Shown here: positions 4,149 through 42,736 of the stretch, piece after piece
How positions within the stretch are numbered: the first letter of the stretch is position 1
How the letters are laid out: every line of letters starts with the position of its first letter
Assembly: GCA_963755715.1 (NCBI GenBank)
Contig: CAVWLW010000018.1
Location: 1 to 48,201, forward strand
Origin: an uncultured delta proteobacterium
GTDB taxonomy: Bacteria; Desulfobacterota; Binatia; UBA9968
DNA: 48,201 nt
Direction of reading: 5' to 3'
Notes under the pieces: model-generated
Seen by the model: only the letters and a program-made list of their open reading frames with translations
Databases searched by the model: none
What the model was told of the DNA's origin: nothing
Translations under genes and position numbers: made by a program

Positions 4149-4305
4149 GACATAAAACGGGGCATCGGTCTTGTCGTGCAGACAGACAGCGCTTTGCGTT
4201 TACTGCCAGCTGTCGCGCGGTAAATACTATAGATCAGCGACACCTCGGTAGCTCAGACGACGCCGCGCATCGCTTCATTCATGCAAACAATGCGAGCCGC
4301 TTCGG

Positions 4306-6498
4306 TTACAAACCTTCCTGCGACCTTTTGACTTCTCGGCGGCGCGAGTGGAGCACGGGTTCGGTGTAGCCGTTGGCTAGGTCACGGCCGTTTAAGACAA
4401 GCTCCAACGCCGCCTGAAAAGCGATGCTTCGGTCATAGTCCGGTGCCATGTTGCGGTAGTTCGGATCGCCGCGATTTTGCCGATCGACCACCTGGGCCAT
4501 GCGCCGAAACGTCTCGATGACCTGATTCTTCGCGACGATGCCATATTTGAGCCAGTTGGCGATATGCTGGCTGGATATTCTGAGCGTCGCCCGATCCTCC
4601 ATCAACGCGACATCATTGATATTCGGAACTTTCGAACAGCCGATGCCCTGATCGACCCAGCGAACGACATAGCCCAGGATGCCTTGCGCATTGTTATCCA
4701 GCTCGCGTTGAATCTCCTCCGGCGTCAACTTCCGCTCCAACAACAGCGGCGGTGTGAGAATATGCTCGAGGTTCGCGCGGCCCCGTTTCGCCAGTTCGCG
4801 CTGCCGCTTGGCGACATCGACATAGTGATAGTGCAGCGCATGAAGCGTCGCCGCGGTCGGCGACGGCACCCAGGCGGTGTTGGCGCCGGCTTGCGGATGG
4901 GCGATCTTCGTCTCGACCATCGCGCGCATCTCGTCCGGCATGGTCCACATGCCTTTGCCGATCTGCGCTTTGCCGCGGAATCCCGTCTCGATGCCGATGT
5001 CGACGTTGCAATCTTCGTAGGCTTTGATCCATGGCTGGGTTTTGATCTCTTCCTTCGGCAGCATCGCGCCCAGCTCCATGCTGGTATGGATCTCGTCGCC
5101 GGTGCGATCCAAAAAGCCCGTATTGATGAACACCACCCGATCTTTCGCAGCCCGGATGCATTCCTGCAGATTGACCGTGGTGCGCCGCTCTTCGTCCATG
5201 ATGCCGATCTTGAGAGTTCTCCGCTTCAAGCCGAGGGCACCCTCGATGCGTTCGAACAACTCGACAGTAGCGGCGACTTCCTCCGGCCCATGCTGTTTCG
5301 GTTTGACGATGTAAATGCCCCCCGTTTTGCTGTTGCGATATTTTCCCTTGCTCTTGAGATCGTGAATCGCGGCAAGCGCCGTGATCATGCCGTCGAGAAA
5401 ACCCTCGGGAATCTCTTCGCCGCTCTTCGTCATTACGGCGTCGGTATACATGTGCATGCCGACATTGCGCACCAGCAGCAGGCTTCTGCCGGGCAAAGTC
5501 AGCTTTCTTCCGGTCGGCGTGGTAAAGACTTTGTCCGGATTCAGCCTTCGGGTCAGCGGGCGGCCGTTCTTTTCGAATGTGGTTTCCAGCGTTCCTTTCA
5601 TCAGGCCGCACCAATGTCGATAGACCGCGATCTTGTCGGCGGCGTCCACCGCCGCGACCGCGTCCTCGCAATCTTCGATGGTGGTGATCGCCGCCTCGAG
5701 GACCACGTCTTTCACGCCTGCGGGGTGGGCCTTGCCGATGGGATGGTTTCGGTCGAATTGAATCTCGATGCGCGCGCCGTTGTTTGTCAGGACGATGTCC
5801 GTCAACTCTCCGGCGCTTTCCCGATAGCCGAGAAATTTTCGTCCATCGGCGAGACTTGTCGTCTTGCCGTCCTTGAGCATCACTGTGAGTTGTTTCTTAC
5901 GGCCGAACCGCTTGAGAAAAAATCGGCTGACGTCCGAGTAACTGCCGCGTTTCAGAGCGACGACTTTGTCTAAAAACTCCTCGGTGTAGGCGATGACCTT
6001 GGCGCCGCGCTTGGGATTGTAGGCTTCACCCTTTTCCGCGCCGTCCTCTTCCGGGATCACGTTAGTGCCGTAGAGCGCGTCGTAGAGACTGCCCCAGCGG
6101 GCATTGGCGGCGTTCAAGGCATAGCGGGCGTTGTCGAGCGGCACCACCAACTGCGCCCCGGCGATGGAAGCGATCTCGGCGTCGACGTTGGCCGTGGTGA
6201 TTTTAAAATTTTTCCCCTCGGGGACGAGATAACCGATCTCTTGCAGAAAGGCAGCGTATACCGGGAGGTCAAACGGCTGACCGGAGCGGGCCAGGTGCCA
6301 CTCATCGATCTGCTTTTGCAGCCGGTCACGCTTTGCCAAAAGCGCTCGATTCTTCGGCCCGAGATCTCTCACGATCGCGCTGAGAGATTTCCAAAAGCCG
6401 TCAACCTTCACCCCGGTTCCCGGCACGATCTCGTCGCGCACCAGACGATAGAGCTGTTCATCGATCCTAAGACCGCCGACCTCGACTCTGCTGGCCAT
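4306..6498 (-). CDS. glcB: Malate synthase G
   Basis: [63 protein letters not shown]; GGAG RBS favours ATG 6498. Confidence 0.96.
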
Positions 6499-6649
6499 GG
6501 TCATCTCCGTTTCGTGTGCACCCGAGGCAAGCACAAAATCGCACGGCGAGACGCAAAAATCTTCAGCGTGCTTCGGATAGTTTTATTCTTGAGTTCTACC
6601 CCTTCTTGTCAACTCCGTCGGTCCTTAATGCCGGATGCAGCGCATCGCC

Positions 6650-7241
6650 TCATTCATGGAAGCGACGCGTGGCGGCGTCGGCAGCTTCTTTCACTCCGGG
6701 CAGAGGGCAGAAATTGTTAGCCTCGATGCCGAAGACCGGGTTGAACTTGCTGCGAAAGTTTTCGAGCGCGATCACCGCGGCCAATTCGACCAACTCCTCG
6801 TCGGTAAAATGTTTCTTAAGACGTTTGAAAAACTTATCCGTGACCCGTTTACCGGTGTAGGTCATGCGCTCGGCGAGCTCCAGTGCCAACCGCTCGCGCA
6901 GGGAAAACAAAGAGTTCTTCTTGTAATCTCCCAGCACGGCTTCGACCTTCTCTGCTGCAGCCCCGTTTTGCATCGCCCCGGATGCGTTACTGTCAATTCA
7001 ATACGGGCAACCGTTGATATGGGCAGTCCTGACGCAGACCAGGTTGCGTAGCTCCGGCGCTATCAGCCCCGATTCCTGAATGCCCTGGGCGAGTGCCTGG
7101 ACTCCTTTCTGGATCGTCGGCCTGACGGCAGAGACCTGCGCAGCGTTTGACACAAAGCCATGACGTTTCTTCTGCTCTGCGAAAATTTGCCGCACCTCAT
7201 CATTGGCTTCATTTTCCAGTTACACCTTTAATCCTGGCCAT
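6650..7241 (-). CDS. AhpD/carboxymuconolactone-decarboxylase-family protein with in-frame UGA (probable selenocysteine, CxxU); one apparent +1 frameshift near codon 7
   Basis: ORFs 6998..7195 and 6650..6973 are in the same frame: …HINGCPY-TGA-IDSNASGAMQNG…; ATG 7241 with AGGA RBS joins after removing 1 nt near 7220 (MARIKGVLENEANDEVRQ…); AhpD-like tail ERLALELAE…FTDEELVEL…NF. Confidence 0.82.
6970..6985 (-). promoter_or_regulatory. Candidate bacterial SECIS hairpin
   Basis: Stem starts 12 nt 3' of the UGA: GCAUC-CGGGGC-GAUGC with a G-rich apical loop about 18-19 nt from the UGA. Confidence 0.6.
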
Positions 7242-7586
7242 GAATGTTCCTTTTGATTTACTTCACGATGTCGATTCATCTGAGTCTCAGTTGTCCGTCA
7301 TTGTAAAATGGGCAAAGCGATCAATACCGCGAACCTTTTGCTCGTTCAAATAGTATCCCGGGTGTGCGAGTAAGAGAGTTTCAACCAGGTACAATTTTTC
7401 ATACGTGGATGATCGCAATTGCCGATAAGTTCGCGACCAAAAAGTTCCCGATCTCCGTTATGTTCCTGATAGAGACGTCCCCAATCGAGGATCTTAACCG
7501 GCGCGTGACTCATCGGCATCGGCAACCCGGATCGATGCATATTTCGTGCTGGTAGGCTCAAAACGATATCGGGGTTTTCAGGTCGG

Positions 7587-8295
7587 TTAGGCTGCTCTCT
7601 CCATCGCTTGCGCCATGCCGCCGAAATAGACGCGGTGAATGTCCATCGAATCCGTCGCGGTCGTCAGGACATCCTGCTCCCGTCCCGGCGCGACATATTT
7701 CTCCAGAACATCGAGGAACATGTCGGAATGTTTTACGTCGGCTTTGCTATGCGCGGTGAAGTTCGGCACCTGCGCGGCGCTGAAATTTAGATCGCGCGAC
7801 CAAATCTTGTAGAGCCGGCTGCAATTGCCCCCGCCGATATCGCCCAACAGCCGATCGTCATTGGTCCACTCGGCGATGGTCGACGCAGCGATGGCTTCCT
7901 GCCACGGACGGGTGCGCGCGATCCAGAACCACGCGTACATGGCCGCCTTGGTGGTGGGCAACGGCGCGGCGTTCATCACCTCATCGGCGCTCAAGCCGAC
8001 TTCTTTTCCCTGACGAACAATGAGATCCATATGGCCGGTCTTGGAGTGCTCGTCTTCGACCAGCTCCTCATACTCGTGCGCTAAGATTCGTTGCTTAACC
8101 TCGAACTCCGGACAATTCGCCGCTACCTGCGGCCAATTGTTACGTCGCTGGCGGGCATAAAGGCCTAGCTGCAGAGAGATATATTCGCGCCCGCTCCGCC
8201 GTCATTTTGATCGAGTAAAAATGTTCCATCTCCGGCGTGCGAAAGAAATCCCTGACGCACTCACCGAGCGCCTGCCGCCATTCTTGTGCTTGCAC
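7587..8295 (-). CDS. Heme-oxygenase-like diiron protein (CADD/PqqC/TenA fold); one apparent +1 frameshift near 8175
   Basis: GTG 8295 with AGGAGG RBS; repaired protein about 235 aa with HEYEELVEDEHSKTGH, AEW and HSKADVKH motifs. Confidence 0.78.
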
Positions 8296-8407
8296 CGAAA
8301 TACCTCCTAGAAAATAAATCCTCTGTTTCGCAGTTTGTACGTCGAATCAATAAGTTCGACAATACCCGTCGATCTACTTTTTCTGCTGCGGATTCTTCTC
8401 CGCACAC

Positions 8408-9371
8408 CTACCGTGCCGCCTTGGCAAAAACTTTTTCGATAAAGCCATCTTTCACCAGTTTATCGACCACGCTATTGTCGATGACTTTGGCAGTGAGCGT
8501 TTCAGCGTCGACGCCTTTGACGGGTTCGAATTCCAAGACCGTAGCCACATTTCGGCTATCGACCCGGGGTGTTTTTTCAGTGAACTTGGTGACGAGAGCG
8601 TAAGTTTCGTCGAGAAAATCGGCATCATTCCGTTTGAAATATTTTGCCAGCACCTTGAGCGTGGCTTCCTTGTCGTGATTCATCGCGCCGACGGCTTCGA
8701 TATAGGCTTTGACCACGCGCTCCGCGGTATCGGGATTCTTTTGCAGAAACTCCCGGGTGACCGCCATGACGTTCATAGAAAAGGGAATGTCGAGATCGAA
8801 AGCGTTCAGCAGGGCCCGTGCCGGCGCTCCCGGCTTGACTCCGGTCACGATGCCGGCAACTTGCTTCTGTCCAAAAGCGGCTTGCATTTCCGGCGTGCCG
8901 CCGAGCGGGCGCATGGTGACGGATTTTTCCAGCCCAAGCTTGCGCAAGATCAATGTCGTCACCGTGTGCCCCGATGAATTGAAGCGCGAGATGCCGAGGG
9001 TTTGGCCTTTGAGCTGATCGGCGCGCGTGATGTCGGGTTGGACATAGAAAGTCATGGCCGGGCGATTGGTCATCGCTGCGATCGCCAGCACCGGCGCGCC
9101 GCGCGCCGCCGCCAAGACGACGCCGCTGATCCCGGGGGCGCTCACGTCGAGACTGCCGCCGAGAAGCGCTTGGATATTCATCCCGCTGGAAGCGATATAG
9201 ATGAGCTGGACGTCGAGACCGTATTTCTTGAACGCGCCGGTCTCATGGGCCATCCAGACGCCTGCAACGCGTGGGCCCGACGACTGAATAGGACAATCGA
9301 AGAGGAGCGGCCGATACCTCGCCCGCACAACAAAGCCAGAGCGCCACAACCTGCAAGAGCAGCTTTTTCAT
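8408..9371 (-). CDS. ABC-type substrate-binding protein, NMT1/THI5/SsuA-like; apparent +1 frameshift near 9270
   Basis: Signal peptide MKKLLLQVVALWLCCAGEVSA from ATG 9371 joins ORF 8408..9349 after removing 1 nt; GAFKKYGLDV, LKGQTLG, IDNSVVDKL. Confidence 0.82.
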
Positions 9372-9537
9372 GCCAGCTGACAAGTTACGGCTGTTGCGGT
9401 GAGACCGTCAAGGGGCAAAAACCAAGCACATTCGTTGACAACCAATTCCCCATCTAGTTACTCTCGGCCTTTGGTCCTGGGCCAAATCAATAGGCCGAAC
9501 AGCCGACGGCGAAATTCTGAAGCAAAGGAGTTCACCG

Positions 9538-10845
9538 ATGCGCCCGTGGTTCTTTCAAATTCCTTTCATCTTCATCGCCCTGTGCGCGGTTTTGCTGCGC
9601 GATGCCGCGCCCCAAAGCGCGTCTGTTTATCTGCAGCTCAGTCCGACGGTCAAGGCCGTGCTTTATTCGCCCGATGCGAGTATTAAATCTCGCGTCGCGG
9701 TGGTCAACATGCATGAAGACGGCAACCGCTTGAACGACATCGCGTGCACCGAGTTGGTCCAGCGAGGCTTTTACGTGCTCTGCATGAATGGCCGCTCGGA
9801 CAACAACGAAGCGCTGGATTTTTGGAACGATCTGCCGCTCGACGTTGCGACCGGTATCAAATACCTGAAAGACACGGTGAAGGCGTCGAAAATCCTTCTT
9901 TACGGGGGCAGCGGCGGCGCGCCGCTGATGACTTTTTATCAAAACGTCGCGCAAAACGGTCTGTCAGTTTGCCAGGGCGCGAACAAACTTATCCCTTGCA
10001 GTAAAGAGCTGGCCGGGCTGCCCCAGGCTGACGGCATCATCTTGCGCGACGCCCATCCGGGAACTGCGGTCAATACTCTGCGCTCGATCAATCCGTCGCT
10101 GCAGCGCGACGACAAGCCGGACCAGATTAACGCCGCCCTCGATCCGTTCAGCGCCAAAAATGGTTTCAACGCAAACGGGCCGAGTCATTACTCGCGCGAA
10201 TTCCAAGAGCGTTATTTCAAAGCACAGGCGGCGCGCATGAACCGGCTCGTCGACGCCGCCCTGGGAAAGCTGCGCGCCATCGAAGCCGGCAAATACTATT
10301 ACAAAGACGATGACGCCTTCGTGATTCACAAAAGCGAGAGCAGCCGTCTGTCGGAAATGGATTTGACCATTCATGCCGGCACCGTCAAGCCGCAAAAGTT
10401 GTTAAAGAACGACGGCACGACCGTAACCGAGGTAATCAAGAGCGTGCGTGTCGCCGACAGCCGGAATCCCGAGCGCGCCAAATCATTTTACGACGGGTCG
10501 AAATTCTTGACGGTCAGATCGTTTCTCGGCACGCGGGCAATTCGCGCCAAGCATGCGCTGGACGATATCGACTATTGCTCCAACAACAACTCGACGCCCT
10601 GTCACTTGCACAAAATCACCGTGCCGATTTTGATCCTCGGCATGGGCGGCCATTATTTTTTGCGCGACAACGAGATCCACTACGAAGTGTCGGCCAGCCC
10701 CGATAAAGAATACATCGTCATCGAAGGCGCGTCCCATGGCATTCGGCCATGCAAAGCTTGCGAGACAACGCCGGGTCAATATTCCAACACGGTCAAAAAC
10801 ACTTTCGACTACGTGCAAAAATGGATCAACGCGCGGTTTCAGTAA
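9538..10845 (+). CDS. Exported alpha/beta-hydrolase-fold protein (paralog of 23673..24989)
   Basis: Signal peptide, nucleophile elbow GGSGGA, ITVPILILG, IEGASH; AAGGAG RBS. Confidence 0.75.
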   Translation: MRPWFFQIPFIFIALCAVLLRDAAPQSASVYLQLSPTVKAVLYSPDASIKSRVAVVNMHEDGNRLNDIACTELVQRGFYVLCMNGRSDNNEALDFWNDLPLDVATGIKYLKDTVKASKILLYGGSGGAPLMTFYQNVAQNGLSVCQGANKLIPCSKELAGLPQADGIILRDAHPGTAVNTLRSINPSLQRDDKPDQINAALDPFSAKNGFNANGPSHYSREFQERYFKAQAARMNRLVDAALGKLRAIEAGKYYYKDDDAFVIHKSESSRLSEMDLTIHAGTVKPQKLLKNDGTTVTEVIKSVRVADSRNPERAKSFYDGSKFLTVRSFLGTRAIRAKHALDDIDYCSNNNSTPCHLHKITVPILILGMGGHYFLRDNEIHYEVSASPDKEYIVIEGASHGIRPCKACETTPGQYSNTVKNTFDYVQKWINARFQ

Positions 10846-11012
10846 CGGTTCGTTGAATGAATCTGCTGCGCGAAATTTCGCCCTCTGCAGGAAACATATA
10901 GCGGTCCTGAACGCAGGCTGACTCCGTTTTCATCGATGACGGCGCCATCGTCGTGTGCAATGGCGGCACGGCGACTCCCGGCGCAGCCCGAGAGCAGTGT
11001 AGATAGTAACCG

Positions 11013-12003
11013 TTAGCGGTAAACGCTGCCGATAAAGCCGCTTTGATCGAGTTGGCGCATGATACTGGTGTCGACGAAGTCTTCGGGCTTGTAGTTCTTC
11101 GTCTTGGGCAGTTGCGCGGACATTTCGTCCAAGTATCGGCTGAATTCCTTCCAAAGTCGGATAAGGCGCCTTTTCATACAGCGCCGAAAACACGCGGTAG
11201 GTTTCCTCGAGGATCTCGCGATCGCTGGACCTGAGCATTTTTCCTAACACTTTGATGGCAAACTCTCGATCCGTCTTCACCCGATGAATGCCCTCGATCA
11301 CTCCCTTGGCGAATTGCGAGAAAGTCTCGCGCTCCTTACGTAGCTGGCTTTCGCGCGCGACGATGACCGTCGTGGCGTATTTGAATTCTTGACCGAGATT
11401 GGCCAGCTCGGTGAAGCCGAATTTTTTTCTGCCGATGTAGGCCCGCGGCGGATCGAGCACCGCGGCATGGATGCGGCGTTTTTCCAACGCAGCGAGGCTT
11501 TCGATATAGCCGCCGGTGGCCAGGAATTTGACGTCGGACTCCAACCCCCACTTTTTTAACAACCGCTGCGTCAAAAGCGTCGGCGAACCGCCCAAGTTGC
11601 CGACGCCGATAAATCTCCCTTTGAGATCGCTGGGCTTTTTTATCTCCGGGACGGCGATCACGGAAAGCGTGAAGGAATTAAGCAGTCCCATCATGATGGT
11701 CGTGTCTGCGCCCTCGATGCGCGCTCTGACGGGAGCGGTTCCGGATAGGCTCGCCGCCAATGTGTCCCCCGCTAAAATAAGCTGCACCTGCCGGGACGCC
11801 GATTGCAGACCGAGAAGTTCGACGTTCAGCCCATGCTTGGCAAACAATCCGGCGTCGCGCGCCGCCCAGAGCGGCAGCTGCGCCGATCCCAGACTTAATG
11901 AAATGCGAAACGATTTTAGCTCTTGAGCATCCAGAGTAGGGAGAAACCCAAATGAGAGCGTCCAAAGGATTGCTAAACAAATTTGCGCCTTGTCCGTAGA
12001 CAC
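11013..12003 (-). CDS. ABC-type substrate-binding protein, NMT1/THI5-like; apparent +1 frameshift near 11130
   Basis: GLFAKHGLNV, DLKGRFIG; removing 1 nt restores the family C-terminus …KPEDFVDTSIMRQLDQSGFIGSVYR* (TAA at 11013). Confidence 0.82.
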
Positions 12004-12020: not shown

Positions 12021-12964
12021 TTATTTTGTCGCTCCGAACTCCGCGAAGAATTTTTCCGCGCCGGTATGTAACGGAATGGCCAGACCGCGCAAGCCGGTTG
12101 CCGGGGATTCGCCGCGAAAACCGTCGTTCATTTTTTGCAATTCAGCCATGCGCGAGTAGACGATCTTCAACATTTGATAAACAACGCTCGGGCTCACGTC
12201 GTCGCGCGCTACCAGAGGTCCGGGCAAACCCACCGCTCGCGCGGATCGCGGATAGTCCGGATAGTAAGTCTTGATATCGACGTCGAGATAAAGCGGCGAG
12301 CGCTTTTGCAGCTCTTGAATCCTCGCCGAATCCAGCGGAATGATCTTCAGCGTTTGCCGTTTGACCATCTCGCTATAAGCGGGTACCGGCAGACGGGCGA
12401 TGCTGAAAACGGCGTCGATTTCTTTTTTTTCGAGCGCGCCGCGCGCCTTATCCGTGTCTCCTCTTACCGCCGTTACGTCTGAAGTAATGCCGTAGACATC
12501 GAGAATCTGCTTGCCCAGAAGCGCCGAACCGGTGCCGCCGCCGTAGACGATTTTTCGTCCTTTGAGATCGGCGATCGATTGAATGTTGGAGTCGGGATGC
12601 GCATAGATGAACATGAGACTAAAACCGAAGCTCGCCACGTGGCGGATTCGTCTTTGCGCCCGCCCGTTGAAACTCTCCCGTCCCGTCATAGGCTTCTTTG
12701 ACCGATTCCGCGGTGCTGGTGCCGAAGGAAGCGTGTCCGTCATTGACGGAAATCATATTGCTCGGACCGCCCTCCGACGGCAGCGTGACAAGCGTGAAAT
12801 CCGTCGCGTACTGGTTCACCAGATTGGCGAAGTAAAGCATATTCACGTATACACTGCTGTTGAGACCCGAGGTATGAATCGAATAGCGACTATCGGCGCC
12901 GTGATGCGGCCGCGACGTAAAGCGGCTGCAACAGGAGCGCGAACAGCAAAATTTTCTTAATCAT
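12021..12964 (-). CDS. TAXI-family TRAP solute-binding protein; two apparent +1 frameshifts (about 12900 and 12670)
   Basis: Three frames join into about 313 aa: signal peptide, SEGGPSNM, IQSIADLKGRKI, C-terminal IPLHTGAEKFF typical of TAXI. Confidence 0.78.
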
Positions 12965-22693: not shown

Positions 22694-22778
22694 ACGGCGC
22701 GTTCAAATCGCTGCGGGGTAGTTGATTCATTTAGTCTCGGTTTTCTACGAACGCCAAATACAAAGAACGGAGCGACTC

Positions 22779-23648
22779 ATGGAGCTATCGAAATATATCG
22801 TTAAAGCGCGCCCGGGGGTTCTCGGCGGCAAGCACGAAGAGAAGCGGCCGCTGCGCCAGTTAAGCGCCTTGCCGGTCAAGCGCCATGTTTTTATCAACCG
22901 CGATTCGCACCCTGAAGCGAATATTTACGTGGCGATTCACGAAGCGAAGGATTTGCCGTCGCCGGTGCCGGATTATCAGGTGCCGCACTGTCACAACACA
23001 GACGAATTTTATTACTTCATCGGCAATCATGCGGATCTCACCGGCCTCGAAGGACAAATCATCTTCGAAGGGAAAGCGCACAAGATCATCGCGCCGGCCT
23101 GTGTCTATATTCCCACCGGCGCGGTGCACGAATATAAGGTTACCAAAGGCGCGGGTACCGTGACGGTTTTGTTTCGTGATCGCGGCTACACGCATGAAGA
23201 TAAGCCTTTCGATGCGTCTAAGGGTGAGCGCGAATTTGCCAAGTACGCCGGTTATATTTTTCCGCCCGATGTGAGGCCGACGACGGAAATCAAATATCAC
23301 ACCGACGCGGCGCCCGGCGTGCGCTACGTCTTCGTCGACGGCAAGTTGAAACCCGAGGCCGGCTTTTACACGGTCGTCCGTAGCGTGGAAAACGTCAAGC
23401 CGACGCAGGCCAATTACGTCGATCTGCACAGGCACAATTGCGACACCCAGCATATTGCGATCGGCACCGGACCGGAGCTTAGCGGGTTGAAAATAGAGTT
23501 TCAGATTCGCGACGAAAAAGTCGTCGTCGAGAGCCCGGTGGGCGTGCACATTCCTGCCGGCACGCCACACACGCAGCGCATCATCGAGGGATCCGGGCAC
23601 TTCTTCAACTTCGTGCCGAAGAGCAATTACAACGAGGGCTTGATCTGA
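22779..23648 (+). CDS. Bicupin protein of unknown function
   Basis: Two cupin repeats: HCHNTDE…YIPTGAVH and HRHNCDT…HIPAGTPH; GGAG RBS before ATG 22779. Confidence 0.75.
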   Translation: MELSKYIVKARPGVLGGKHEEKRPLRQLSALPVKRHVFINRDSHPEANIYVAIHEAKDLPSPVPDYQVPHCHNTDEFYYFIGNHADLTGLEGQIIFEGKAHKIIAPACVYIPTGAVHEYKVTKGAGTVTVLFRDRGYTHEDKPFDASKGEREFAKYAGYIFPPDVRPTTEIKYHTDAAPGVRYVFVDGKLKPEAGFYTVVRSVENVKPTQANYVDLHRHNCDTQHIAIGTGPELSGLKIEFQIRDEKVVVESPVGVHIPAGTPHTQRIIEGSGHFFNFVPKSNYNEGLI

Positions 23649-24989: not shown

Positions 24990-25114
24990 TCGGGCTTGAA
25001 CTTCGTCCTTTCGCAAGCCAATATTTCGCCAGGATCGAGCCCGCGTTGTTGGCGATACAATATTGATTTGTGGCTTCGTCGGCAGCGTGCGGTCAATCAA
25101 GAAGTGGGGGTAAA

Positions 25115-25675
25115 ATGACTAACGGTAAAATCGCAAGCGCCGTGTTCGGCGGCGGTTGTTTTTGGTGCACGGAAGCGGTCTTCGACGAGCTTCGCGGTGT
25201 GCAGTCGGTCATCTCTGGTTATGCCGGCGGCGCGACGAAGAATCCGACTTATGAACAAGTTTGCTCCGGCAGCACTGGCCATGCGGAAGTGATCAAAATC
25301 GAATTCGATCCGGCGCAGATTTCATTTCGTGATTTGATGACGGTGTTTTTCGCGACCCATGATCCGACGACGCTCAATCGTCAGGGCAATGATGCTGGCA
25401 CGCAATACCGCTCGGCGATTCTTTATGCCGATCCGCAACAGAAAGCCGAGGCCGCGGCATTCATTAAAGAACTCGACGAGGCCAAGACCTATAAGAACCC
25501 GATCGTAACGACCTTGGAGCCGTTGACGGAGTTTTATCCGGCGGAAGATTATCATCAAAAATTTTACGCCAACAATCCGTACCAGGGCTACTGCCAATAC
25601 ACGATTCCGCCGAAGCTCAACAAGCTGCATAAACAATTTTCGGCTTTGCTCAAATCACATGGCAAGACGGCCTGA
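25115..25675 (+). CDS. msrA: Peptide-methionine (S)-S-oxide reductase
   Basis: [29 protein letters not shown]. Confidence 0.96.
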
Positions 25676-28279: not shown

Positions 28280-29324
28280 TCACAGGATTCCTAGCCATAA
28301 CAGAGCCGCCGTGCCGGCCATGATCACCAGTCCCAGCGGCACGCCGAGCTTCGCCCATTCGGTGCTTTTGATGTGAAGCGCGTGCGCCGCGATGATGTTC
28401 GGAATGTTGCCGGGGATCAGCATGCCGCCTGAGATCAGCAGTCCGAGCAGCGCGCTTTTGATTTGCGCTTCGCTCAGAGAAGGGCCGATCTCAGCCGCCG
28501 CCAGCGTGGCATTATCGAGGATCGCGGATACCATGTTGACCCAGAACAGAATCTGCGACGGGAGCTTGAGCAGATAAGTATCGATCAGCGGTTTAAAGCC
28601 GGCGCCAAGGAATATTAGCGCCATGACAAAGATATAGACTTTGCCCGCTCTGACAAATACCTCGCTGAGCCTTTCTTCCTCTTCCTCAGCTGCCAAAGAT
28701 TCACCGGTGTCCTCGGGTGCTTCGTGCACGAGAAAAATGCCGACGATCCCCGAGCACCACAACCGCGGGAACGACGTAGAGCGCGAGGAGGTTGAACAAA
28801 TAGTAGAACGTGGCGTGGTAGGGCGCGCCGCTCAGCTTCGACACGACGATGGTCGAGAGCGGTTCGCCGAGGGGGGTGAGCGCCGCGCCAAGACCGATGG
28901 CGAAGCAAGCGATAACCGTTAGTTTTACTTCGGCGTGGCGGTGTAGCGGCAGCACGCTGATGAATTCGACGAGCAACAGAGCCGCGATGATCGCCGAGAT
29001 CACGCTCGACACGAGGCCGAGAATGATGATGCCGCTGCACACGATAACCGACAGCGGCATGGTGATGAGGACACGGCGCATGCCATGATCGATGTAGTGA
29101 CGCAGGTAATGGAAGAGCACGCCGGCACCCAACACGGCGAGAGTGATGTTGATCGGCGCGATCAATCCCTCATGAAGGACTTCGGTGCTCCAGGCATTTG
29201 CAAAGGTCGCGCTGATCACGCCCATCAGGAACAAAAAGGCTTCGAGATTCGATTCGATCTTCTTGTTCAAGAACGGACCGACCAAGACAACTATAAAAAT
29301 CAAAGAGAGGCCAATGGTTAACAT
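28280..29324 (-). CDS. DUF1646-family membrane protein (putative cation transporter); apparent +1 frameshift in the G-run near 28750
   Basis: IESNLEAFLF, GLGAALTPLGEPLSTI, ILDNATLAAAEI, GGMLIPGNIPNII; the two ORFs join after removing one G. Confidence 0.8.
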
Positions 29325-29499
29325 GCTGTTTCCATGATCTCGGTTCTATGACATCGCGCGCCGTAAGACGCAATGTCGGTGCCGTGGTTTGACGGCTCAA
29401 AGGGTGCGCCGGATGGCGCTGATTTCAGCCAGCAAATTCTTCTAGAAATCTATTGCTTGCATTGATAAGGTGAGCGAAATTTTTCGCTGGAGCGGGACT

Positions 29500-30483
29500 A
29501 TGATTGGTAAAAGCAAATTGCGTCGAGTGCTCGTCGTTTTGTTCTTCATGCTTAACCTACGGGCGGCTTCTGCCCAAGAAATGAGCTTGCGCGCGGTTTA
29601 CAATGCCCTGAGTGGTGTCATGGCGCCGATTTGGGTGGCGCAAGACGCCGGACTTTTCACCAAGCATGGGGTCAACGTCGATCTGAAATACTTGGCGGCT
29701 ACGACGGCGGTTCAAGGCATGCTCGGCGGCGGCGAAGAAATCGGCCTCGTCGGCAATCAGGGCATCGACGCCAAGCTCGAAGGCGCGGATCTCATTTACG
29801 TTGCCAGCGGTTTGCCGGTGTTTGTATTCCAGATTTACGGGCGCCCGGAGACCAAGACTCTGGCGGACTTGAAAGGCAAGGTCGTCGCGGTTACCCAGCC
29901 GGCGGCATCGACTGATTACGCCATGCGCATCGTGCTCAAACGCAACGGCCTGGAACCCGATAAAGATGTGCGGATACTTTATGCGCAGGATATCAACGGT
30001 GTGTTAACCTCTGTGAGCGCGGGCAATGCCGCGGCCGGCATCATGTCGGCGCCGACGTCCATCCGCGCCAAAGCGGCGGGGTTGCGAGCCATCGTCGATG
30101 TTACCGCTCTCAAAGTGCCGTTTCTTTTTACCGCCATGCTCTCATCGGCGAAAGTTATCCGCGAAAAGAACGAAGCCGTGACCCGATTTCTGCGCGGCTA
30201 TATCGAATCTTTGGCGGTCATTCGCAAAGACAAAGAAACCACCATGCGATCGATGGGCAAGTTTCTCAAAACCACGGATCAAGCGGTGCTCGAATCGGTT
30301 TATGACGACTACAAAGACGTGTTTCCGACCACGCCACTAATGACCGCGGCCGAAGTCAAGGCGGTGCTCGACGTCGCTAAGAGTCCCAGAGCGAAGCAGA
30401 TGAAGCCCGAGGAGTTTTTCGATAATTCGATCGTCCAGAAAATTCAGGCGTCTGGGTTCATCGAGCAGGTCAACAAGCATTAG
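29500..30483 (+). CDS. ABC-type substrate-binding protein, NMT1/THI5-like
   Basis: Signal peptide, GLFTKHGVNV, DLKGKVVA, EEFFDNS. Confidence 0.85.
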   Translation: MIGKSKLRRVLVVLFFMLNLRAASAQEMSLRAVYNALSGVMAPIWVAQDAGLFTKHGVNVDLKYLAATTAVQGMLGGGEEIGLVGNQGIDAKLEGADLIYVASGLPVFVFQIYGRPETKTLADLKGKVVAVTQPAASTDYAMRIVLKRNGLEPDKDVRILYAQDINGVLTSVSAGNAAAGIMSAPTSIRAKAAGLRAIVDVTALKVPFLFTAMLSSAKVIREKNEAVTRFLRGYIESLAVIRKDKETTMRSMGKFLKTTDQAVLESVYDDYKDVFPTTPLMTAAEVKAVLDVAKSPRAKQMKPEEFFDNSIVQKIQASGFIEQVNKH

Positions 30484-32698: not shown

Positions 32699-33703
32699 CT
32701 ACCTAAACATACCTGACGCAATCAGTTCTTTTACAAACCTGTCGTCGATGAATTGATCCCACTTGGTGCCTTTGGCCTTGGGATTCTCCGAGGATGCGAG
32801 CACGGCTTCAATGGCCGGTTGCGACGGCGCGGGAATTCTTTCCCAGGCGTTCTCGTAGGAGTCGAGCGCTTCGTTGAGCTGCGCCGGGTCGGTGATTTTA
32901 GTGTATTTCGACATGATGGCGACGGCGTCCGCACGGTTTTTGCGCAAGAAATCCAAGCCCTCAGCGGCGCTGCGCACGAAACGCCGAACCACTTCGGGAT
33001 TCGCGTTGATATACGAACGGCTCGTGCCGATGGAATGTTGCACGAAAGGAATTTTCAAAGCCGTGATGTTGAGCAGCTCCTTCAGGCCGAAATTTCGCGC
33101 AGTGAGCGTGCTCGGCGGCGCCAGCAGCGCCGCGTCGATGACGCCTTGCTGCAGCGCGGCGACCAACGCCGGTATTTCCTTCAAGTAAGCAAATTTCACA
33201 TCGACGTCGGGCTTGAGGCCGTTTTGCGTGAGCAGCATATGTCCTGCGATATCGGTGGGTGTGCCTTTATTCGTCGCGCCGAGGGTTTTGCCCGCCAGTG
33301 CCTTGATGTTCGCGATATCAGGCTTGCTATAGAGCGAAAAGACGAAAGTATTAACCGGACTCATGATGTAGACGGTATCCGAGCCGGCGAGATTCGCTTC
33401 TAAAATTTGCGGGCCGGCGGTGACAAAATTTACTTTCCCGCCGACCAGCGCCTGCACGGCTTGGTTGGTCGGAATATGGGTGAGATCGATGTTGACGCCG
33501 TTCTTTTTGAAAAAGTTTTTCTCTTGCGCAATCCAGAGATAAAGCGGATCGGTGGCGATGACGCCATAGACTGCGGTGGCTTGGAGGAGCGAACTTTCGG
33601 CGGCGTCACCGGTCCGGCATAGACCGAATAAGGCGCATAGGACCAATGACCATGTAGCACTAGGCTTGCAGAGTTTCACCGATCTCGTCCCCGTCGACAG
33701 CAC
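32699..33703 (-). CDS. ABC-type substrate-binding protein, NMT1/THI5-like
   Basis: FFKKNGVNI, LAGKTLG, QFIDDRFVKEL; start uncertain. Confidence 0.85.
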   Translation of the reverse strand: MLSTGTRSVKLCKPSATWSLVLCALFGLCRTGDAAESSLLQATAVYGVIATDPLYLWIAQEKNFFKKNGVNIDLTHIPTNQAVQALVGGKVNFVTAGPQILEANLAGSDTVYIMSPVNTFVFSLYSKPDIANIKALAGKTLGATNKGTPTDIAGHMLLTQNGLKPDVDVKFAYLKEIPALVAALQQGVIDAALLAPPSTLTARNFGLKELLNITALKIPFVQHSIGTSRSYINANPEVVRRFVRSAAEGLDFLRKNRADAVAIMSKYTKITDPAQLNEALDSYENAWERIPAPSQPAIEAVLASSENPKAKGTKWDQFIDDRFVKELIASGMFR

Positions 33704-34317: not shown

Positions 34318-35265
34318 TCATTTCTTTTCCAATTCGACCATAACTTCCTTGACGAAGCGCAAGTCCATGTATTCGCGCACCGGCCGCTTCGGTTGCACGT
34401 TCAAAGCAACGGATTGCCAGTGCGCCATGAGCTCGACGCCTTTTTCCGTGGGCACGGGAATCAACGCTTCCTTTACTAAATTGTAAGCGTCCACCGACAC
34501 GTCGCGTTCCATGCGCCAGTGTTTGATCATGGTTTGAATCGCGTCTTCGGGATAATCTCGGCTATGGATGACGCCGCGCACGATCGCGCGCACCATGCGC
34601 TTGACGAATTGCGGATTCTCTCTGATCGTTTTGCCGGTGGCGGCCAGACCGCTGAAAGAAGTGTCCTTGAAAAGATCGGCTAAATTGACCAGGCGCTTGA
34701 AGCCGGCTTTGATCGCGACGTAATCGGACGGCGGCGCGAGCAAGGCGGCCTGGATGATGCCTTGCTGCATGGCGGCGATCTTCGGCTGGCTGCCGGGAAT
34801 GCTCACGTACTGCACGTCCTTTTCCGGATTCATCTTATAGAGTTCGAGCAGCGCTTTGGTCCCAGCGAAAGTCGAGCCGCCGAAGCTGACGCCGATCTTT
34901 TTACCTTTAAGATCCGTTACTTTTTGAATGTCTTGAGTGACCACCATGGAAAAAGTCGGGCGGCCGATCATTTGCGCGAGCAAAATTATCTCAGCGCCTT
35001 CCCAAATAGACGGCATCTGCGGCCCGACTGAAAAGATAAAATGTATCTGATTGCCGAGCAGGGCCTGCACGGCGGTGACGGCGTTGCGCACCGAGATCAG
35101 CTCGGCGTCGAGCCCTTCGCGTTTGTAAAAACCTTTTTCCAAGGCGACGAACGCCGGCAGGAATTGCACGTTGGCGGAGGGATAGGCGCCGCGCACGGGT
35201 TCGGCCTGGGCTGTGTTCGCGCCCAGAATGATCCAAGTGATCAGAAGTAAGGAAAGCCGTGCCAT
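34318..35265 (-). CDS. ABC-type substrate-binding protein, NMT1/THI5-like
   Basis: Signal peptide, [18 protein letters not shown]. Confidence 0.85.
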
Positions 35266-35291: not shown

Positions 35292-36260
35292 TCAGCGTGA
35301 TTCGCCCTTGAGTTCCTGAATGAGCGATAGGTCAAAAAATTTGTACGGCGGGATCGAGGCGAAAGCGGGGTCCTCATAGCTCATCGTGCGCAGCACGTTA
35401 ACGATGGCTTCTTCGGTCGGAAAAAGATCGGGCCGCGAATCGGCTCGCATGGTTTTATAAGCGTATTCCAAACTGTCGGCATCATCGATTTTCAGCACTT
35501 GCGCCATCACGGCGAGGGTCGAAGCTCTGTCCGCCATCATAAGCCGCACTGATTCGGCGAGTCCACGCAGATAATTTTTAACGACCTCACGATTCTTGTT
35601 CAGGAAGGAACGGCGCGTGATGTTGATGCCCCAAATATATTCAAGCGGCACCGGGATCACGGTGAGCCCGAGTTTCTCGGCTTGGCGCCCTTGCAGCGAA
35701 GATATAAGCGTGGCATCGAGATTGCCGGAAACCACCGCCGCGAGCCGTACCGCGGAGCCGCCGGAAAGCGGGATAATCTGCGCGTCGCTGCGATAGTCGA
35801 GCCCGACCTGGGCGAGCATGAACCGAATGTACGCGTCGGCGCGACCGCCGGCGCCGCTGGACGCGATCTTGCGGCCTTTTAGCTCCTTCAGCTCTTTGAT
35901 CTTGATCCGACTGGCAAGGCTGTATGGCGAGGAATTGTTCCACGAAGCGAGCCCGACCGCGTCCAAGCCTTGTTTGCCGAGGTAGAAAAGTCCCGTGGAG
36001 CTCGAAGTGAGAAACTGCACGCTATCGGACATGAGCGCCTGCATGTTCATTTGTTCGTTGCGGGTAGCGATGACCTCGACGGCGAGGCCATACTTACTGA
36101 ACACGCCCTTTTTTGCGCCAAGATAAATCGGCAGAGCGCCGGTGAGCGCGCCGGGAGTTGCGACCCGCAAAAGCGTTTGCGCGGCGCCCAAGCTTGGGCT
36201 CAGAAGGGATAGCAAAAGAACAATGGTGAAAATTGCGCGCCGATGCTGCATAATTGACAT
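35292..36260 (-). CDS. ABC-type substrate-binding protein, NMT1/THI5-like
   Basis: Signal peptide, GVFSKYGLAV, ELKGRKIA, FFDLS. Confidence 0.85.
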   Translation of the reverse strand: MSIMQHRRAIFTIVLLLSLLSPSLGAAQTLLRVATPGALTGALPIYLGAKKGVFSKYGLAVEVIATRNEQMNMQALMSDSVQFLTSSSTGLFYLGKQGLDAVGLASWNNSSPYSLASRIKIKELKELKGRKIASSGAGGRADAYIRFMLAQVGLDYRSDAQIIPLSGGSAVRLAAVVSGNLDATLISSLQGRQAEKLGLTVIPVPLEYIWGINITRRSFLNKNREVVKNYLRGLAESVRLMMADRASTLAVMAQVLKIDDADSLEYAYKTMRADSRPDLFPTEEAIVNVLRTMSYEDPAFASIPPYKFFDLSLIQELKGESR

Positions 36261-37215: not shown

Positions 37216-37644
37216 ATGATTTCATTAGACCTCAGCATTCTTTATCAGATCATTCTGTTCGTTGCCCTATGGCTGATTCTCAATAAGATTCTATTTCAGC
37301 CTTATTTGCAGCTGCTCGAAGAGCGCGAGCGCCGGACCATCGGCGCCGAGCATGATTCCGCCGACTTGGAACATGAAGGCGCGCGTCTGCGCGCGCAATA
37401 CGAGGGAAAAATCGCGCAAGCACAGAGCGCCGCCTACGCCGCCAAAGACGCCATTTTGCAAGAGGCGCGGCAACAGCGCGAAAAAATTTTAGGGCAAGCG
37501 CGCGCAGAAGCTGCGAGCAAACTTGAACAGGCGCGACGCGAGATCGCCCTGGCGCTGGAAAAAGAAAAGGCGCTGGCCGCCGCTGAGACGGCGACGGTTG
37601 CCGGAGAAATGGTCAGTAAAGTGCTCGGAAGGAAGGTCGCGTGA
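37216..37644 (+). CDS. atpF: ATP synthase Fo subunit b'
   Basis: N-terminal TM helix, LNKILFQP…ERE, coiled coil; first gene of the atp cluster. Confidence 0.88.
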   Translation: MISLDLSILYQIILFVALWLILNKILFQPYLQLLEERERRTIGAEHDSADLEHEGARLRAQYEGKIAQAQSAAYAAKDAILQEARQQREKILGQARAEAASKLEQARREIALALEKEKALAAAETATVAGEMVSKVLGRKVA

Positions 37645-38192
37645 GCGTGCTCGAATTCTTCACGACGGCCCAGGCTTACGCATCCGCGGCGGCCGAAGCC
37701 GAGCATCACGCGCCGTCGATCAACGACATTTGGTTTCCACTCGCCAACTTTCTCATTTACGCTTTCATCATTGTCAAGTTTGCTTTCCCGCTAATCCGAG
37801 ATTTCCTCAAGTCGCGCCACGACGAAGTGGTTTCCACGGTCAGCCAGGCCGCCGCTAAAAAACAGGCGGCCGAGGCGCTGGTGAACGAATACCGCGCCAA
37901 ATTGTCCGGTCTCGATAGAGAAGTTCAGTCGATTCATGCTTCGCTGCGCGAGGAAGGCGAACGAGAAAAAAGAAAACTTGTCGGCGAGGCTCAGGCGACT
38001 GCGATCAAAATTCAAGAAGACGCCAATTTTCTGGCCGAGCAGGAAGTAAAAATGGCCCGGCAAAAACTGCGCGAAGAGATGGCGGATCAGGCCGAGGCGA
38101 CGGCGCGCCAACTCATCGAGCGCAATCTTTCCGGCGCCGATCAGAACCGTCTCGTGGACGATTTCATTCGGACGATCGGACAGAGTCGATGA
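37641..38192 (+). CDS. atpF: ATP synthase Fo subunit b
   Basis: NFLI TM helix, coiled coil, DQNRLVDDFI. Confidence 0.88.
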   Translation: MSVLEFFTTAQAYASAAAEAEHHAPSINDIWFPLANFLIYAFIIVKFAFPLIRDFLKSRHDEVVSTVSQAAAKKQAAEALVNEYRAKLSGLDREVQSIHASLREEGEREKRKLVGEAQATAIKIQEDANFLAEQEVKMARQKLREEMADQAEATARQLIERNLSGADQNRLVDDFIRTIGQSR

Positions 38193-38731
38193 TCGAAGGC
38201 AGCTTAAGTCGCAGGTACACCAAGGCGCTTTTTCAATTGGCCCGCGATGGTGGCCAAGAAGAAAAAATCGGCCAAGAGGTCGAGCAATTCTACGCGGCCT
38301 ACAGCGGTTCCGATCTGCAGCAGGTTCTCACGAATCCGGCATTCAGGATCGAGGCGCGCAAAAAGATTCTCAATCAGGTGACCGCAAGCCAGCAACTTTC
38401 GGCGTTGACGAGTCATTTCCTTTCTCTACTTTTGGATCGCGATCGTCTGCCTTATTTACCGGGCATCGTCAGTTGCTATCGCCGACTGCTCAATGAAGCC
38501 AAAGGGCGGATCGACGCCAAGGTCGTGAGCGCGAGCGCGGTCGAGCCTGAGCGGCTTGCCCAATTGAACGATCGTTTGCGCAGCATTTCGGGCAAAGACG
38601 TGGTTTTGCAGCAGGAAACCGATGCGAGCTTGCTCGGTGGCCTGCTGCTCGAATTGGAAGGAAAAATTTACGACGGCAGCATTCGTACGCAGCTTGAAAA
38701 CATGAAACAGCGCATCGTGCGCGGCTACTAA
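38189..38731 (+). CDS. atpH: ATP synthase F1 subunit delta
   Basis: [15 protein letters not shown]…YDGSIRTQL. Confidence 0.93.
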
Positions 38732-38742
38732 GGAGTCTGAAC

Positions 38743-40251
<1,509 letters not shown>

Positions 40252-40279
40252 GGTGGAAATTAAGGGTGCCACGGAGTTG

Positions 40280-40344
40280 TGTCATCCTGAGCGCATTGGC
40301 GAAGGATCTCGGTCGAGATTCTTCAGCTATTCCTCAGAATGACA
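40280..40344. repeat. Branched palindromic element TGTCATCCTGAG…CTCAGAATGACA
   Basis: Outer stem TGTCATCCTGAG/CTCAGAATGACA and inner stem GAAGGATCTCG/CGAGATTCTTC. Confidence 0.75.
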
Positions 40345-40364
40345 GCAAATAAGAATTAGCAGCC

Positions 40365-41231
40365 ATGGCGACACTAAAAATAATACGCAAGCGGATCAGC
40401 TCGGTGCGCAACACCCAGCAGATCACCAAGGCCATGAAGATGGTTTCGGCAGCCAAGCTGCGGCGCGCGCAAGACGCGGCGGTGGCGGCGCGGCCCTACG
40501 CCGAAAAGATGACCGAACTTTTAAAAAACGTCGCGGCGCGGGTGTCGAGCGAAGCGCATCCGCTGCTCCAGGCGCGTGAGGAAAAGAAGATCCAACTGGT
40601 TTTATTCACCTCCGACCGCGGGCTGTGCGGCGGTTATAATGCCAATCTGATTCGCGCGGCGGAAGCATTCATTCGGAAAAACGCCGGTGAAAAGGAAGTC
40701 GAATTGACGCTCGTTGGCCGTAAAGGCGCGGATCATTTTCGCCGCCGCCGAGCCAATATCGTCGACCGTTACATCGGCATTCTGGCGCCGCCTGCGGATG
40801 AGTTGGCGGCGGAGATCGGCCAGAAACTCATGGCGCGTTTTATCAACGGCGAGACCGACGCGGTCTATATACTTTACAGCCGGTTTCGCTCGGCGCTTTC
40901 CCAGGTGCCGACCTTGGAAAAGCTTCTGCCCGTAGCATTGAGCGAAACCAGCGATACCGAGGCGCAACAACTTACGGAATATTTATACGAGCCGGGAATC
41001 GAGCAACTGTTGGCGAGTCTCTTGCCGCGGATTACCGACGTGGCGATGCAGCGGGCGCTGCTCGAAGCGACGGCAAGCGAACACGGCGCGCGCATGACCG
41101 CGATGGATTCGGCTACCAGCAACGCCTCGAAGATGATCGGTAGTTTGACCCTGCAGATGAACCGGGCGCGCCAAGCGTCGATCACCCGCGAGCTGATGGA
41201 AATCGTCGGCACGGCGGAAGCGTTGAAATAG
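40365..41231 (+). CDS. atpG: ATP synthase F1 subunit gamma
   Basis: ITKAMKMVSAAK, SDRGLCGGYN, SEHGARMTAM, RQASITRELMEIV. Confidence 0.98.
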   Translation: MATLKIIRKRISSVRNTQQITKAMKMVSAAKLRRAQDAAVAARPYAEKMTELLKNVAARVSSEAHPLLQAREEKKIQLVLFTSDRGLCGGYNANLIRAAEAFIRKNAGEKEVELTLVGRKGADHFRRRRANIVDRYIGILAPPADELAAEIGQKLMARFINGETDAVYILYSRFRSALSQVPTLEKLLPVALSETSDTEAQQLTEYLYEPGIEQLLASLLPRITDVAMQRALLEATASEHGARMTAMDSATSNASKMIGSLTLQMNRARQASITRELMEIVGTAEALK

Positions 41232-41239
41232 CAAAATTT

Positions 41240-42736
<1,497 letters not shown>

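Follow-up and report, generated by a model that had tools for sequence, protein, structure and literature searches.

An AhpD-like CxxU selenoprotein gene with a conserved SECIS-like hairpin in a Binatia contig

AhpD-like proteins with a CxxU motif, in which selenocysteine (Sec, U) occupies the second redox position, have long been known as a selenoprotein family. They were first reported as a new family from the Sargasso Sea, with 27 sequences assigned to COG2128 (PMC1088965), and in the Global Ocean Sampling data they ranked among the most abundant families, AhpD-like 1 (COG2128) with 299 sequences and AhpD-like 2 (pfam02627) with 70 (PMC2398784). Reviews from 2022 and 2026 list an 'AhpD-like protein, COG2128 (YciW) / TIGR01926, CxxU' (PMC9312934, PMC13188914), and the family can be browsed in BSepDB (PMC13326102). 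Here we describe a gene of this kind on the minus strand of contig CAVWLW010000018.1 (assembly GCA_963755715.1) from an uncultured delta proteobacterium of the Binatia; the whole analysed stretch of 48,201 nt is called the window, and all positions refer to it. An earlier note, made from the DNA letters alone, had described positions 6650-7241 as an AhpD/CMD selenoprotein gene with a CxxU motif and a hairpin resembling a selenocysteine insertion sequence (SECIS), split by standard gene callers. This reading is supported by our results: the locus is a genuine, ordinary member of the AhpD-like (CxxU) family, which, as the note stated, is an established prokaryotic selenoprotein family, in print since 2005 (PMC1088965). 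Like the described members, it combines the AhpD/CMD fold with a CxxU motif whose second position is Sec, has widespread Cys homologues, carries a small G-loop hairpin directly after the UGA and is a stand-alone gene for about 190-200 residues. It differs from them in belonging to a clade from Binatia-type metagenome-assembled genomes (MAGs) of soil and groundwater rather than marine plankton, in having Asn at position +4 after the redox residue, and in scoring below the TIGR01926 cut-off.

The sequence TGC CCG TAT TGA ATT GAC is present on the minus strand. Its TGC (7007..7009) supplies the Cys of the CxxU motif, which is C78 when numbered as in the orthologues, and its in-frame TGA (7000-6998) corresponds to Sec, U81 in the same numbering. 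Translation of 7219-6653 with the TGA as U gives a frame of 189 residues with a single internal TGA, in the context HINGCPY-U-IDSNASGAM. This frame is open for 73 codons before the TGA and, just as had been counted earlier, for 115 codons after it, until a terminal TGA at 6652-6650 that has no hairpin context. The bulk of the gene, 188 codons at 6653..7216, holds the AhpD/CMD-fold domain with the Sec codon. We consider it highly probable that the product is an AhpD-like (COG2128/YciW, 'peroxidase-related') thiol/selenol oxidoreductase of about 196 residues with a Cys-Pro-Tyr-Sec redox centre, in which the UGA is read as Sec by means of the hairpin.

The assignment to the AhpD/CMD superfamily, already made in the earlier note, follows from two profiles above their cut-offs, Pfam CMD PF02627 (E 5e-12, 46 bits against a cut-off of 23) and the AhpD core domain TIGR00778 (33.2 bits against 27.8). 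Among NCBIfam models, scored with a query lacking the first seven residues, the best is NF053654, 'GroundWater_YciW: YciW-related (seleno)protein' (E 4e-43, residues 3-166 of 189 against profile positions 10-172 of 179), which like the window protein is of the YciW type. The AlphaFold2 model, built on an alignment with 25 distant full-length homologues (30-40% identity), has ten helices arranged in the all-helical AhpD fold, with a mean predicted local distance difference test (pLDDT) score of 95.5 and a predicted template modelling score of 0.90. Foldseek matched this model to the Protein Data Bank (PDB) entries 2prr, 6k40, 6e8l and 6ohi at template modelling (TM) scores of 0.76-0.81 (2prr 0.80, the AhpD 6k40 0.81, the debrominase Bmp8 0.76). 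In the numbering of the window's own frame, C71 of the model lies directly before the helix 72-84 and U74 in its first turn. Redox pairs of the CxxC type usually sit at the N-terminus of a helix.

By sequence and fold taken together, the closest solved relatives are PA0269 of Pseudomonas aeruginosa (2ijc, 2o4d, 7xw1) and the 'uncharacterized peroxidase-related proteins' of the Joint Center for Structural Genomics (2prr, 2pfx, 2oyo), all of which have Cys instead of Sec. PA0269 is the nearest by sequence (2ijc/2o4d, E 3e-13); its INGCAYC aligns with INGCPYU of the window protein, so the TGA falls on the second Cys of the redox motif, as the note had placed it. PA0269 additionally lacks the N-terminal 35 or so residues and has His at +4, where the window protein has the Asn that the note had pointed out. 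Further solved relatives include several 'peroxidase-related' AhpD-core proteins, the AhpD of D. radiodurans and Bmp8. Classical AhpD has a CxxC motif followed by His at +4, and its gene has ahpC as a neighbour. The AhpD of Mycobacterium tuberculosis (1knc, 1gu9) belongs to the same superfamily and also bears its CxxC redox pair on a helix N-terminus, but it matches our model weakly (TM 0.52-0.54, E about 1). Moreover, the window gene has Asn in place of the His, and no ahpC or other peroxiredoxin gene was found in the window or among the recurrent neighbours of its orthologues. Of the 25 distant homologues, 13 have Asn at +4, more than have any other residue, and four have His; Asn is therefore a subfamily trait and not an oddity of the window gene.

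The decoding of the UGA was assessed by comparison with related genomes. A scan of one genome per species with a four-sequence query alignment gave 149 pattern matches, of which 94 were confirmed and the best 80 taken; these loci carry L numbers below, whereas proteins carry P numbers, P0001 being the window's own frame. The TGA column is covered by 79 loci. In 75 of them, at 55-95% protein identity, the codon is TGA, and single ungapped tblastn matches run across it in most loci; TGT or TGC occupies the column in only four loci, all of them distant (32-36% identity). Thus the Sec codon proposed in the note recurs at the same column in orthologues, with Cys in its place farther away. No Cys variant above 41% identity was seen among the genome loci and the representative-protein matches listed. 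Going by record titles as given, with the bins unchecked, the TGA loci come from Candidatus Binatia or 'delta proteobacterium' MAGs and, in a few cases, from Chloroflexota/Dehalococcoidia/SAR202, Verrucomicrobiia, Eisenbacteria and Acidiferrales. Among the 25 distant homologues the U column holds Cys in 24 and Arg in one, while the first Cys of the pair is kept in 21; the second redox position is thus the better conserved of the two.

If the UGA were a true stop, the locus would instead encode two polypeptides, one of about 80 residues and one of 107 residues starting from ATG 6973. Gene callers do annotate it as two pieces, and the Met nine codons after the UGA is invariant in all 66 distinct Binatia-type orthologues, yet the codons in between argue otherwise. 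The third bases of codons +1 to +4 vary, but the amino acids stay Ile/Leu-Asp-Ile/Ser-Asn, and the eight codons separating the UGA from ATG 6973 as a whole keep their amino acids with synonymous variation and align with C-[IV]-D-x-N of the Cys homologues; the stretch is therefore translated. In three Chloroflexota-type loci (L069, L070 and L076) there is Ala and no ATG at the position of the downstream Met, so the C-terminal half cannot start there. In addition, the UGA stands at the best conserved Cys of the family, and one AhpD fold, predicted with the high pLDDT given above, spans both halves. We therefore regard two separate polypeptides as very improbable and keep to a single Sec-containing protein.

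Protein databases show how such genes are stored. Of 776 matches at E <= 1e-3 the best 120 were considered, and 115 of these are proteins of 106-145 residues that match just the C-terminal 56-61% of the query (81-99% identity); the suspicion that gene callers split this gene has thus been borne out. An exhaustive search of 50% representatives (3493 matches at E <= 1e-3, the best 150 considered) returned N-terminal pieces ending exactly at residue 73 (P0123, P0124, P0155, P0190 and P0216) as well as C-terminal pieces starting at residue 83 or 75. Five of the best 120 matches are longer. One of them, P0005 (196 residues, from a 133-kb contig), is out of frame: it has the N- and C-termini of the family, and its middle, including the Sec column, comes from another frame, so its DNA has two compensating frameshifts or errors masking the TGA. 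The other four, P0002, P0003, P0004 and P0006, carry Trp at the U column. They are what might suggest that the UGA is read through with no help from the Sec machinery, because the code is reassigned (Trp or Gly) or because near-cognate suppression inserts Trp or Cys. These four are evidently gene calls with TGA as Trp. In P0002 and P0003 Trp also replaces the terminal TGA and is followed by an unconserved tail, which marks them as artefacts of a caller applying that code. TGA closes 15 of the 35 long open reading frames (ORFs) of the window as well as 47 of 74 orthologues of the AhpD-like gene, in the latter mostly 114-115 codons past the Sec codon: it is a normal stop in this organism and has not been reassigned. 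Plain suppression, for its part, needs no conserved hairpin at SECIS spacing. The probability of readthrough without Sec machinery is, in our judgement, negligible, and Sec insertion is the reading we retain. Within the window, 62 candidate frames extend without a stop for 50 codons or more to either side of a TGA, and a redox-motif context occurs in the AhpD-like gene only. As for another selenoprotein gene in the window, the MsrA gene at 25070-25675 was considered and is not a Sec form.

The hairpin described in the earlier note, a GCAUC/GAUGC stem with a G-rich loop, is indeed present at 6970..6985. Its arms, GCAUC (6985-6981) and GAUGC (6974-6970), form a 5-bp stem around the 6-nt loop CGGGGC (6980-6975), which starts 17 nt after the UGA. 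The bacterial SECIS (bSECIS) model, as given in a figure legend of a recent review, specifies an apical loop of 3-9 nt, an upper stem of 4-16 bp, a distance of 16-37 nt between UGA and loop, a G in loop position 1 or 2, usually followed by G or U, and a minimum free energy (MFE) of -7.5 kcal/mol or lower (PMC13188914, Fig. 2 legend). In the window, loop length, stem length and spacing lie within these ranges, and loop position 2 is a G. For the alignment of the region (76 sequences, 74 distinct), RNAalifold predicted the 5-bp helix and nothing else, with a consensus energy of -6.36 kcal/mol; an extension of the lower stem, which appears in the MFE fold of the window, was not predicted for the alignment and was discarded. 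All 370 of 370 stem cells are paired, compared with 0.8-52.7% after sliding the 3' partner by 1-3 columns. A shuffle control of the pairing gave 5 of 500 shuffles, a figure that is not a probability. Pair 24-35 is A-U in 59 rows, G-U in 12 and G-C in three, the G-C rows being the three Chloroflexota-type loci named above, in which a synonymous GCA to GCG change on one arm is matched by AUG to GCG on the other.

More telling are the positions at which the protein code leaves the nucleotide free. Starting from the 73 loci with enough flanking DNA, we removed six with frameshifts or gaps (L065, L069, L070, L072, L074 and L075) and one duplicate, and in the remaining 66 sequences identified 48 third positions, over 160 codons, that are four-fold degenerate in at least 90% of the sequences. 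The three lowest entropies belong to codons +8 (G in 66 of 66), +6 (C in 65 of 66) and +5 (A in 54, G in 12 and never a pyrimidine), at a median for all sites of 1.55 bits. These codons are exactly the four-fold sites inside the hairpin. By our own arithmetic, the chance that three named sites are the bottom three of 48 is 1 in 17,296. Judging from this comparison, the hairpin is under selection at the nucleotide level beyond the protein code.

A number of observations weigh against the reading as a selenoprotein gene served by a bacterial SECIS. On its own, the hairpin has an energy of -6.2 kcal/mol, which is weaker than the bSECIS limit. A 60-nt segment does reach -9.4 kcal/mol in the window, through extra pairs that are not conserved and with a result no better than that of shuffled sequences (z = +1.15; 179 of 200 shuffles fold at least as well). 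The hairpin alone is thus no better than chance, and its significance derives only from the comparison of orthologues. Even there, covariation is confined to a single pair in three related loci and probably reflects one evolutionary event. Most orthologues have the loop CAGUG(G/C), with G at neither position 1 nor position 2; the loop-G rule holds for them only if C27 pairs with G32 or G31, leaving a loop of AGUG or AGU. No Rfam family reached its gathering threshold, and the hits near the gene were four chance-level matches (E 6-8), none of them to a SECIS family (E up to 10). Genes for selA, selB and selD and a tRNA-Sec were not found in the 48-kb window, in which ARAGORN reported no transfer RNA (tRNA) at all, nor did it find a tRNA-Sec in 60 related loci (L001-L060). 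That the organism decodes Sec, as the note had supposed, we infer rather than observe, because the window has neither a sel gene nor a tRNA-Sec. The gene also stays below the curated cut-offs of the two NCBIfam models that take selenoproteins into account: NF053654 scores 147 bits against a curated cut-off of 310, and the second-best NCBIfam model, TIGR01926 ('peroxidase-related enzyme'), 63 bits against 81.8. The former score places the gene in a sister clade of NF053654 and not among its equivalog members; it is related to both models without being a trusted member of either. Across 75 loci, there is no conserved neighbour to give functional context. Finally, the window sequence as given cannot yield a full-length protein from ATG 7241.

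This last point concerns the start of the gene. ATG 7241 is preceded, 5 nt upstream, by the Shine-Dalgarno-like AAGGAA (7247..7252), presumably a functional one; most of 17 orthologues inspected have a G-rich stretch, GGAGG or similar, at the matching place. Codons 1-8 (7218..7241) read M-A-R-I-K-G-V-T, the conserved N-terminus of the family, and all 17 orthologues begin with ATG and M-A-R-I-(K/R)-G. Comparison with these orthologues, and a blastn alignment with L001, place one extra base of the window within codon 9, at about 7217/7218: the window reads ACTGG there, and both L001 and L005 read ACGG; 68 of 73 orthologues are without this base. The extra base shifts the frame, and the frame from ATG 7241 therefore stops after ten codons at TGA 7211-7209. 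The main frame meets a TAA at 7222-7220, and its alternative in-frame start is GTG at 7195. The earlier note had overlooked this frameshift. Positions 6650-7241 span 592 nt, which is not a multiple of three, and ATG 7241 lies in another frame than the Sec codon, so that the single frame assumed there is wrong and the observation as a whole is only partly confirmed. The length of about 196 residues with C78/U81 agrees with orthologue numbering; in the window it holds only if one base is skipped.

Should the frameshift be real, the gene would be a recent pseudogene here, or a version shortened at the N-terminus and starting from GTG 7195, and this genome would make no full-length selenoprotein. 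The extra base is indeed there in the sequence as given, database gene calls from an internal GTG exist (P0155, 65 residues), and the N-terminus is disturbed in five of 73 orthologous loci too. However, four of these five come from one MAG series (MFD in the titles), and in the other 68 of the 73 loci with enough upstream DNA a start codon with an open frame lies exactly 80 codons before the TGA. The remainder of the gene is under purifying selection, since relative to L001 the protein is more similar than the DNA (94.7% against 91.2%; 10 amino-acid against about 57 nucleotide differences). L001 is syntenic with window positions 4259-10838 at 86-94% DNA identity, and comparison with it reveals two more single-base insertions in the window, at 8174 and 9270, neither of them compensated, which break the next two genes, both intact in L001. 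With at least three other genes of the same 48 kb frame-broken in like manner, the codon-9 frameshift is likeliest an assembly indel due to sequence quality. Thus, we think that the extra base is very probably an assembly indel and not biology, and that a pseudogene or a shortened gene is unlikely; a full-length AhpD-like selenoprotein remains our reading of the locus.

How such a protein would be made and work can be outlined from the family. Bacterial Sec decoding with SelB has been summarised in the fourth section of a recent review (PMC13188914). In the present gene, SelB carrying GTP and Sec-tRNA(Sec) would bind the hairpin as the ribosome reaches the UGA, which would then be read as Sec and not as a stop, and the ribosome would go on for 115 codons to the ordinary UGA stop. 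This would require selA, selB, selC and selD elsewhere in the genome, where we presume them to be. Chemistry known from the AhpD/CMD family suggests that the selenolate at the second position may attack a peroxide, a sulfenate or disulfide, or another electrophile; Cys78 would resolve the intermediate to a selenenylsulfide, and a cellular thiol reductant would re-reduce it. The substrate could lie outside peroxide chemistry. Bmp8 (6ohi, 6ohj) shares the fold (TM 0.76) and sequence similarity (E 3e-7) with the window protein, and the scaffold is therefore not restricted to peroxide chemistry but supports other thiol chemistry; PDB entry 6ohj bears the title 'Bmp8 C82A in complex with 2,3,4-tribromopyrrole', which points to a functionally important Cys. 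Unlike Bmp8, to which it is 19% identical, the window gene has no link to halogenated substrates.

The surroundings of the gene vary among the related genomes. NMT1/SsuA-type binding proteins are encoded nearby most often (26 of 75 loci), followed by one further protein cluster (22 of 75), and neither is consistently placed. An operon with the upstream PqqC/TenA-like gene was considered and rejected, as the two are adjacent only in L001, one of 79 loci. This upstream gene (7587-8295, minus strand) encodes a PqqC/TenA/haem-oxygenase-like 'iron-containing redox enzyme'; an extra base near 8174 splits it into 8140-8295 and 7587-8030, and in L001 it is one ORF of 235 residues. Next to it lies a gene for an SsuA/NMT1-type substrate-binding protein (8408-9349, minus strand), from which the extra base at 9270 removes the N-terminus with the signal peptide; it is intact in L001 (320 residues, L001 8049-9011). 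It is one of seven paralogous SsuA/NMT1-like periplasmic binding-protein genes in the 48 kb, the others being at 10930-12003, 12021-12743, 29470-30483, 32699-33703, 34318-35265 and 35292-36260. That at 12021-12743 (minus strand, NMT1_3/TAXI-type) begins to match its profiles only at position 66 (Pfam) or 98 (TIGR02122), and its N-terminal part may lie in another frame upstream. The DUF1646 gene (28283-29324, minus strand) is broken into two ORFs that overlap, one for profile positions 3-197 and the other for 194-338 of 347, with a frameshift near 28700-28760. About 1.8 kb that lie between the AhpD-like gene and malate synthase G in L001 (10594-12415) are absent from the window (at about 6625). 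The window includes the malate synthase G gene (4306-6534) and a run of F-type ATP synthase genes (b, delta, alpha, gamma and beta; 37641-42736, plus strand), and these housekeeping genes show that it is chromosomal and not a mobile element. Three genes on the plus strand encode cupin-domain proteins of 308-378 residues without an NCBIfam name (22722-23648, 43281-44414 and 46223-47359), and a homologue of the EutA-like reactivase (44501-46039, plus strand) lies between two of them.

Turning to the lineage, 11 MAGs among the 80 loci hold two TGA-bearing paralogues (L001/L043, L002/L074, L004/L049, L005/L038, L007/L047, L008/L048, L009/L066, L010/L057, L017/L018, L042/L065 and L054/L059). The two paralogue groups are about 66-69% identical to each other, and both copies have the TGA and the same hairpin. 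A full-text literature search found, apart from general papers on the family, no paper that links selenocysteine to Binatia, Binatota or Desulfobacterota_B, or selenoproteins to Binatota, subscription journals, supplements and databases such as BSepDB being outside its reach; it may thus be the lineage, rather than the family, that is unreported. We suggest tentatively that the Binatia (Desulfobacterota_B/Binatota), bacteria widespread in soil and groundwater, could be an unrecognised Sec-using lineage that typically has two AhpD-like selenoprotein paralogues, both served by an unusually minimal and almost invariant 5-bp SECIS, with nearly all public entries mis-annotated as fragments. That MAGs labelled Chloroflexota have the same SECIS would suggest that the gene and its SECIS spread together by lateral transfer.

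For annotation, the finding means that this gene and hundreds of its relatives are stored as 'hypothetical' fragments of 80 and 107 residues, some carrying Trp where Sec belongs; one such fragment is P0101, whose underlying NCBI entry derives from a Candidatus Binatia MAG. Given the indel problems of the window, in-frame stops in it should be judged against orthologues before they are interpreted. Once the gene is recognised, the proteome is set right and the lineage is marked as dependent on selenium. A clade that has only the Sec form of a redox enzyme suggests, in turn, that the supply of selenium is important to the chemistry of oxidative stress or detoxification in an abundant group of uncultured soil bacteria.

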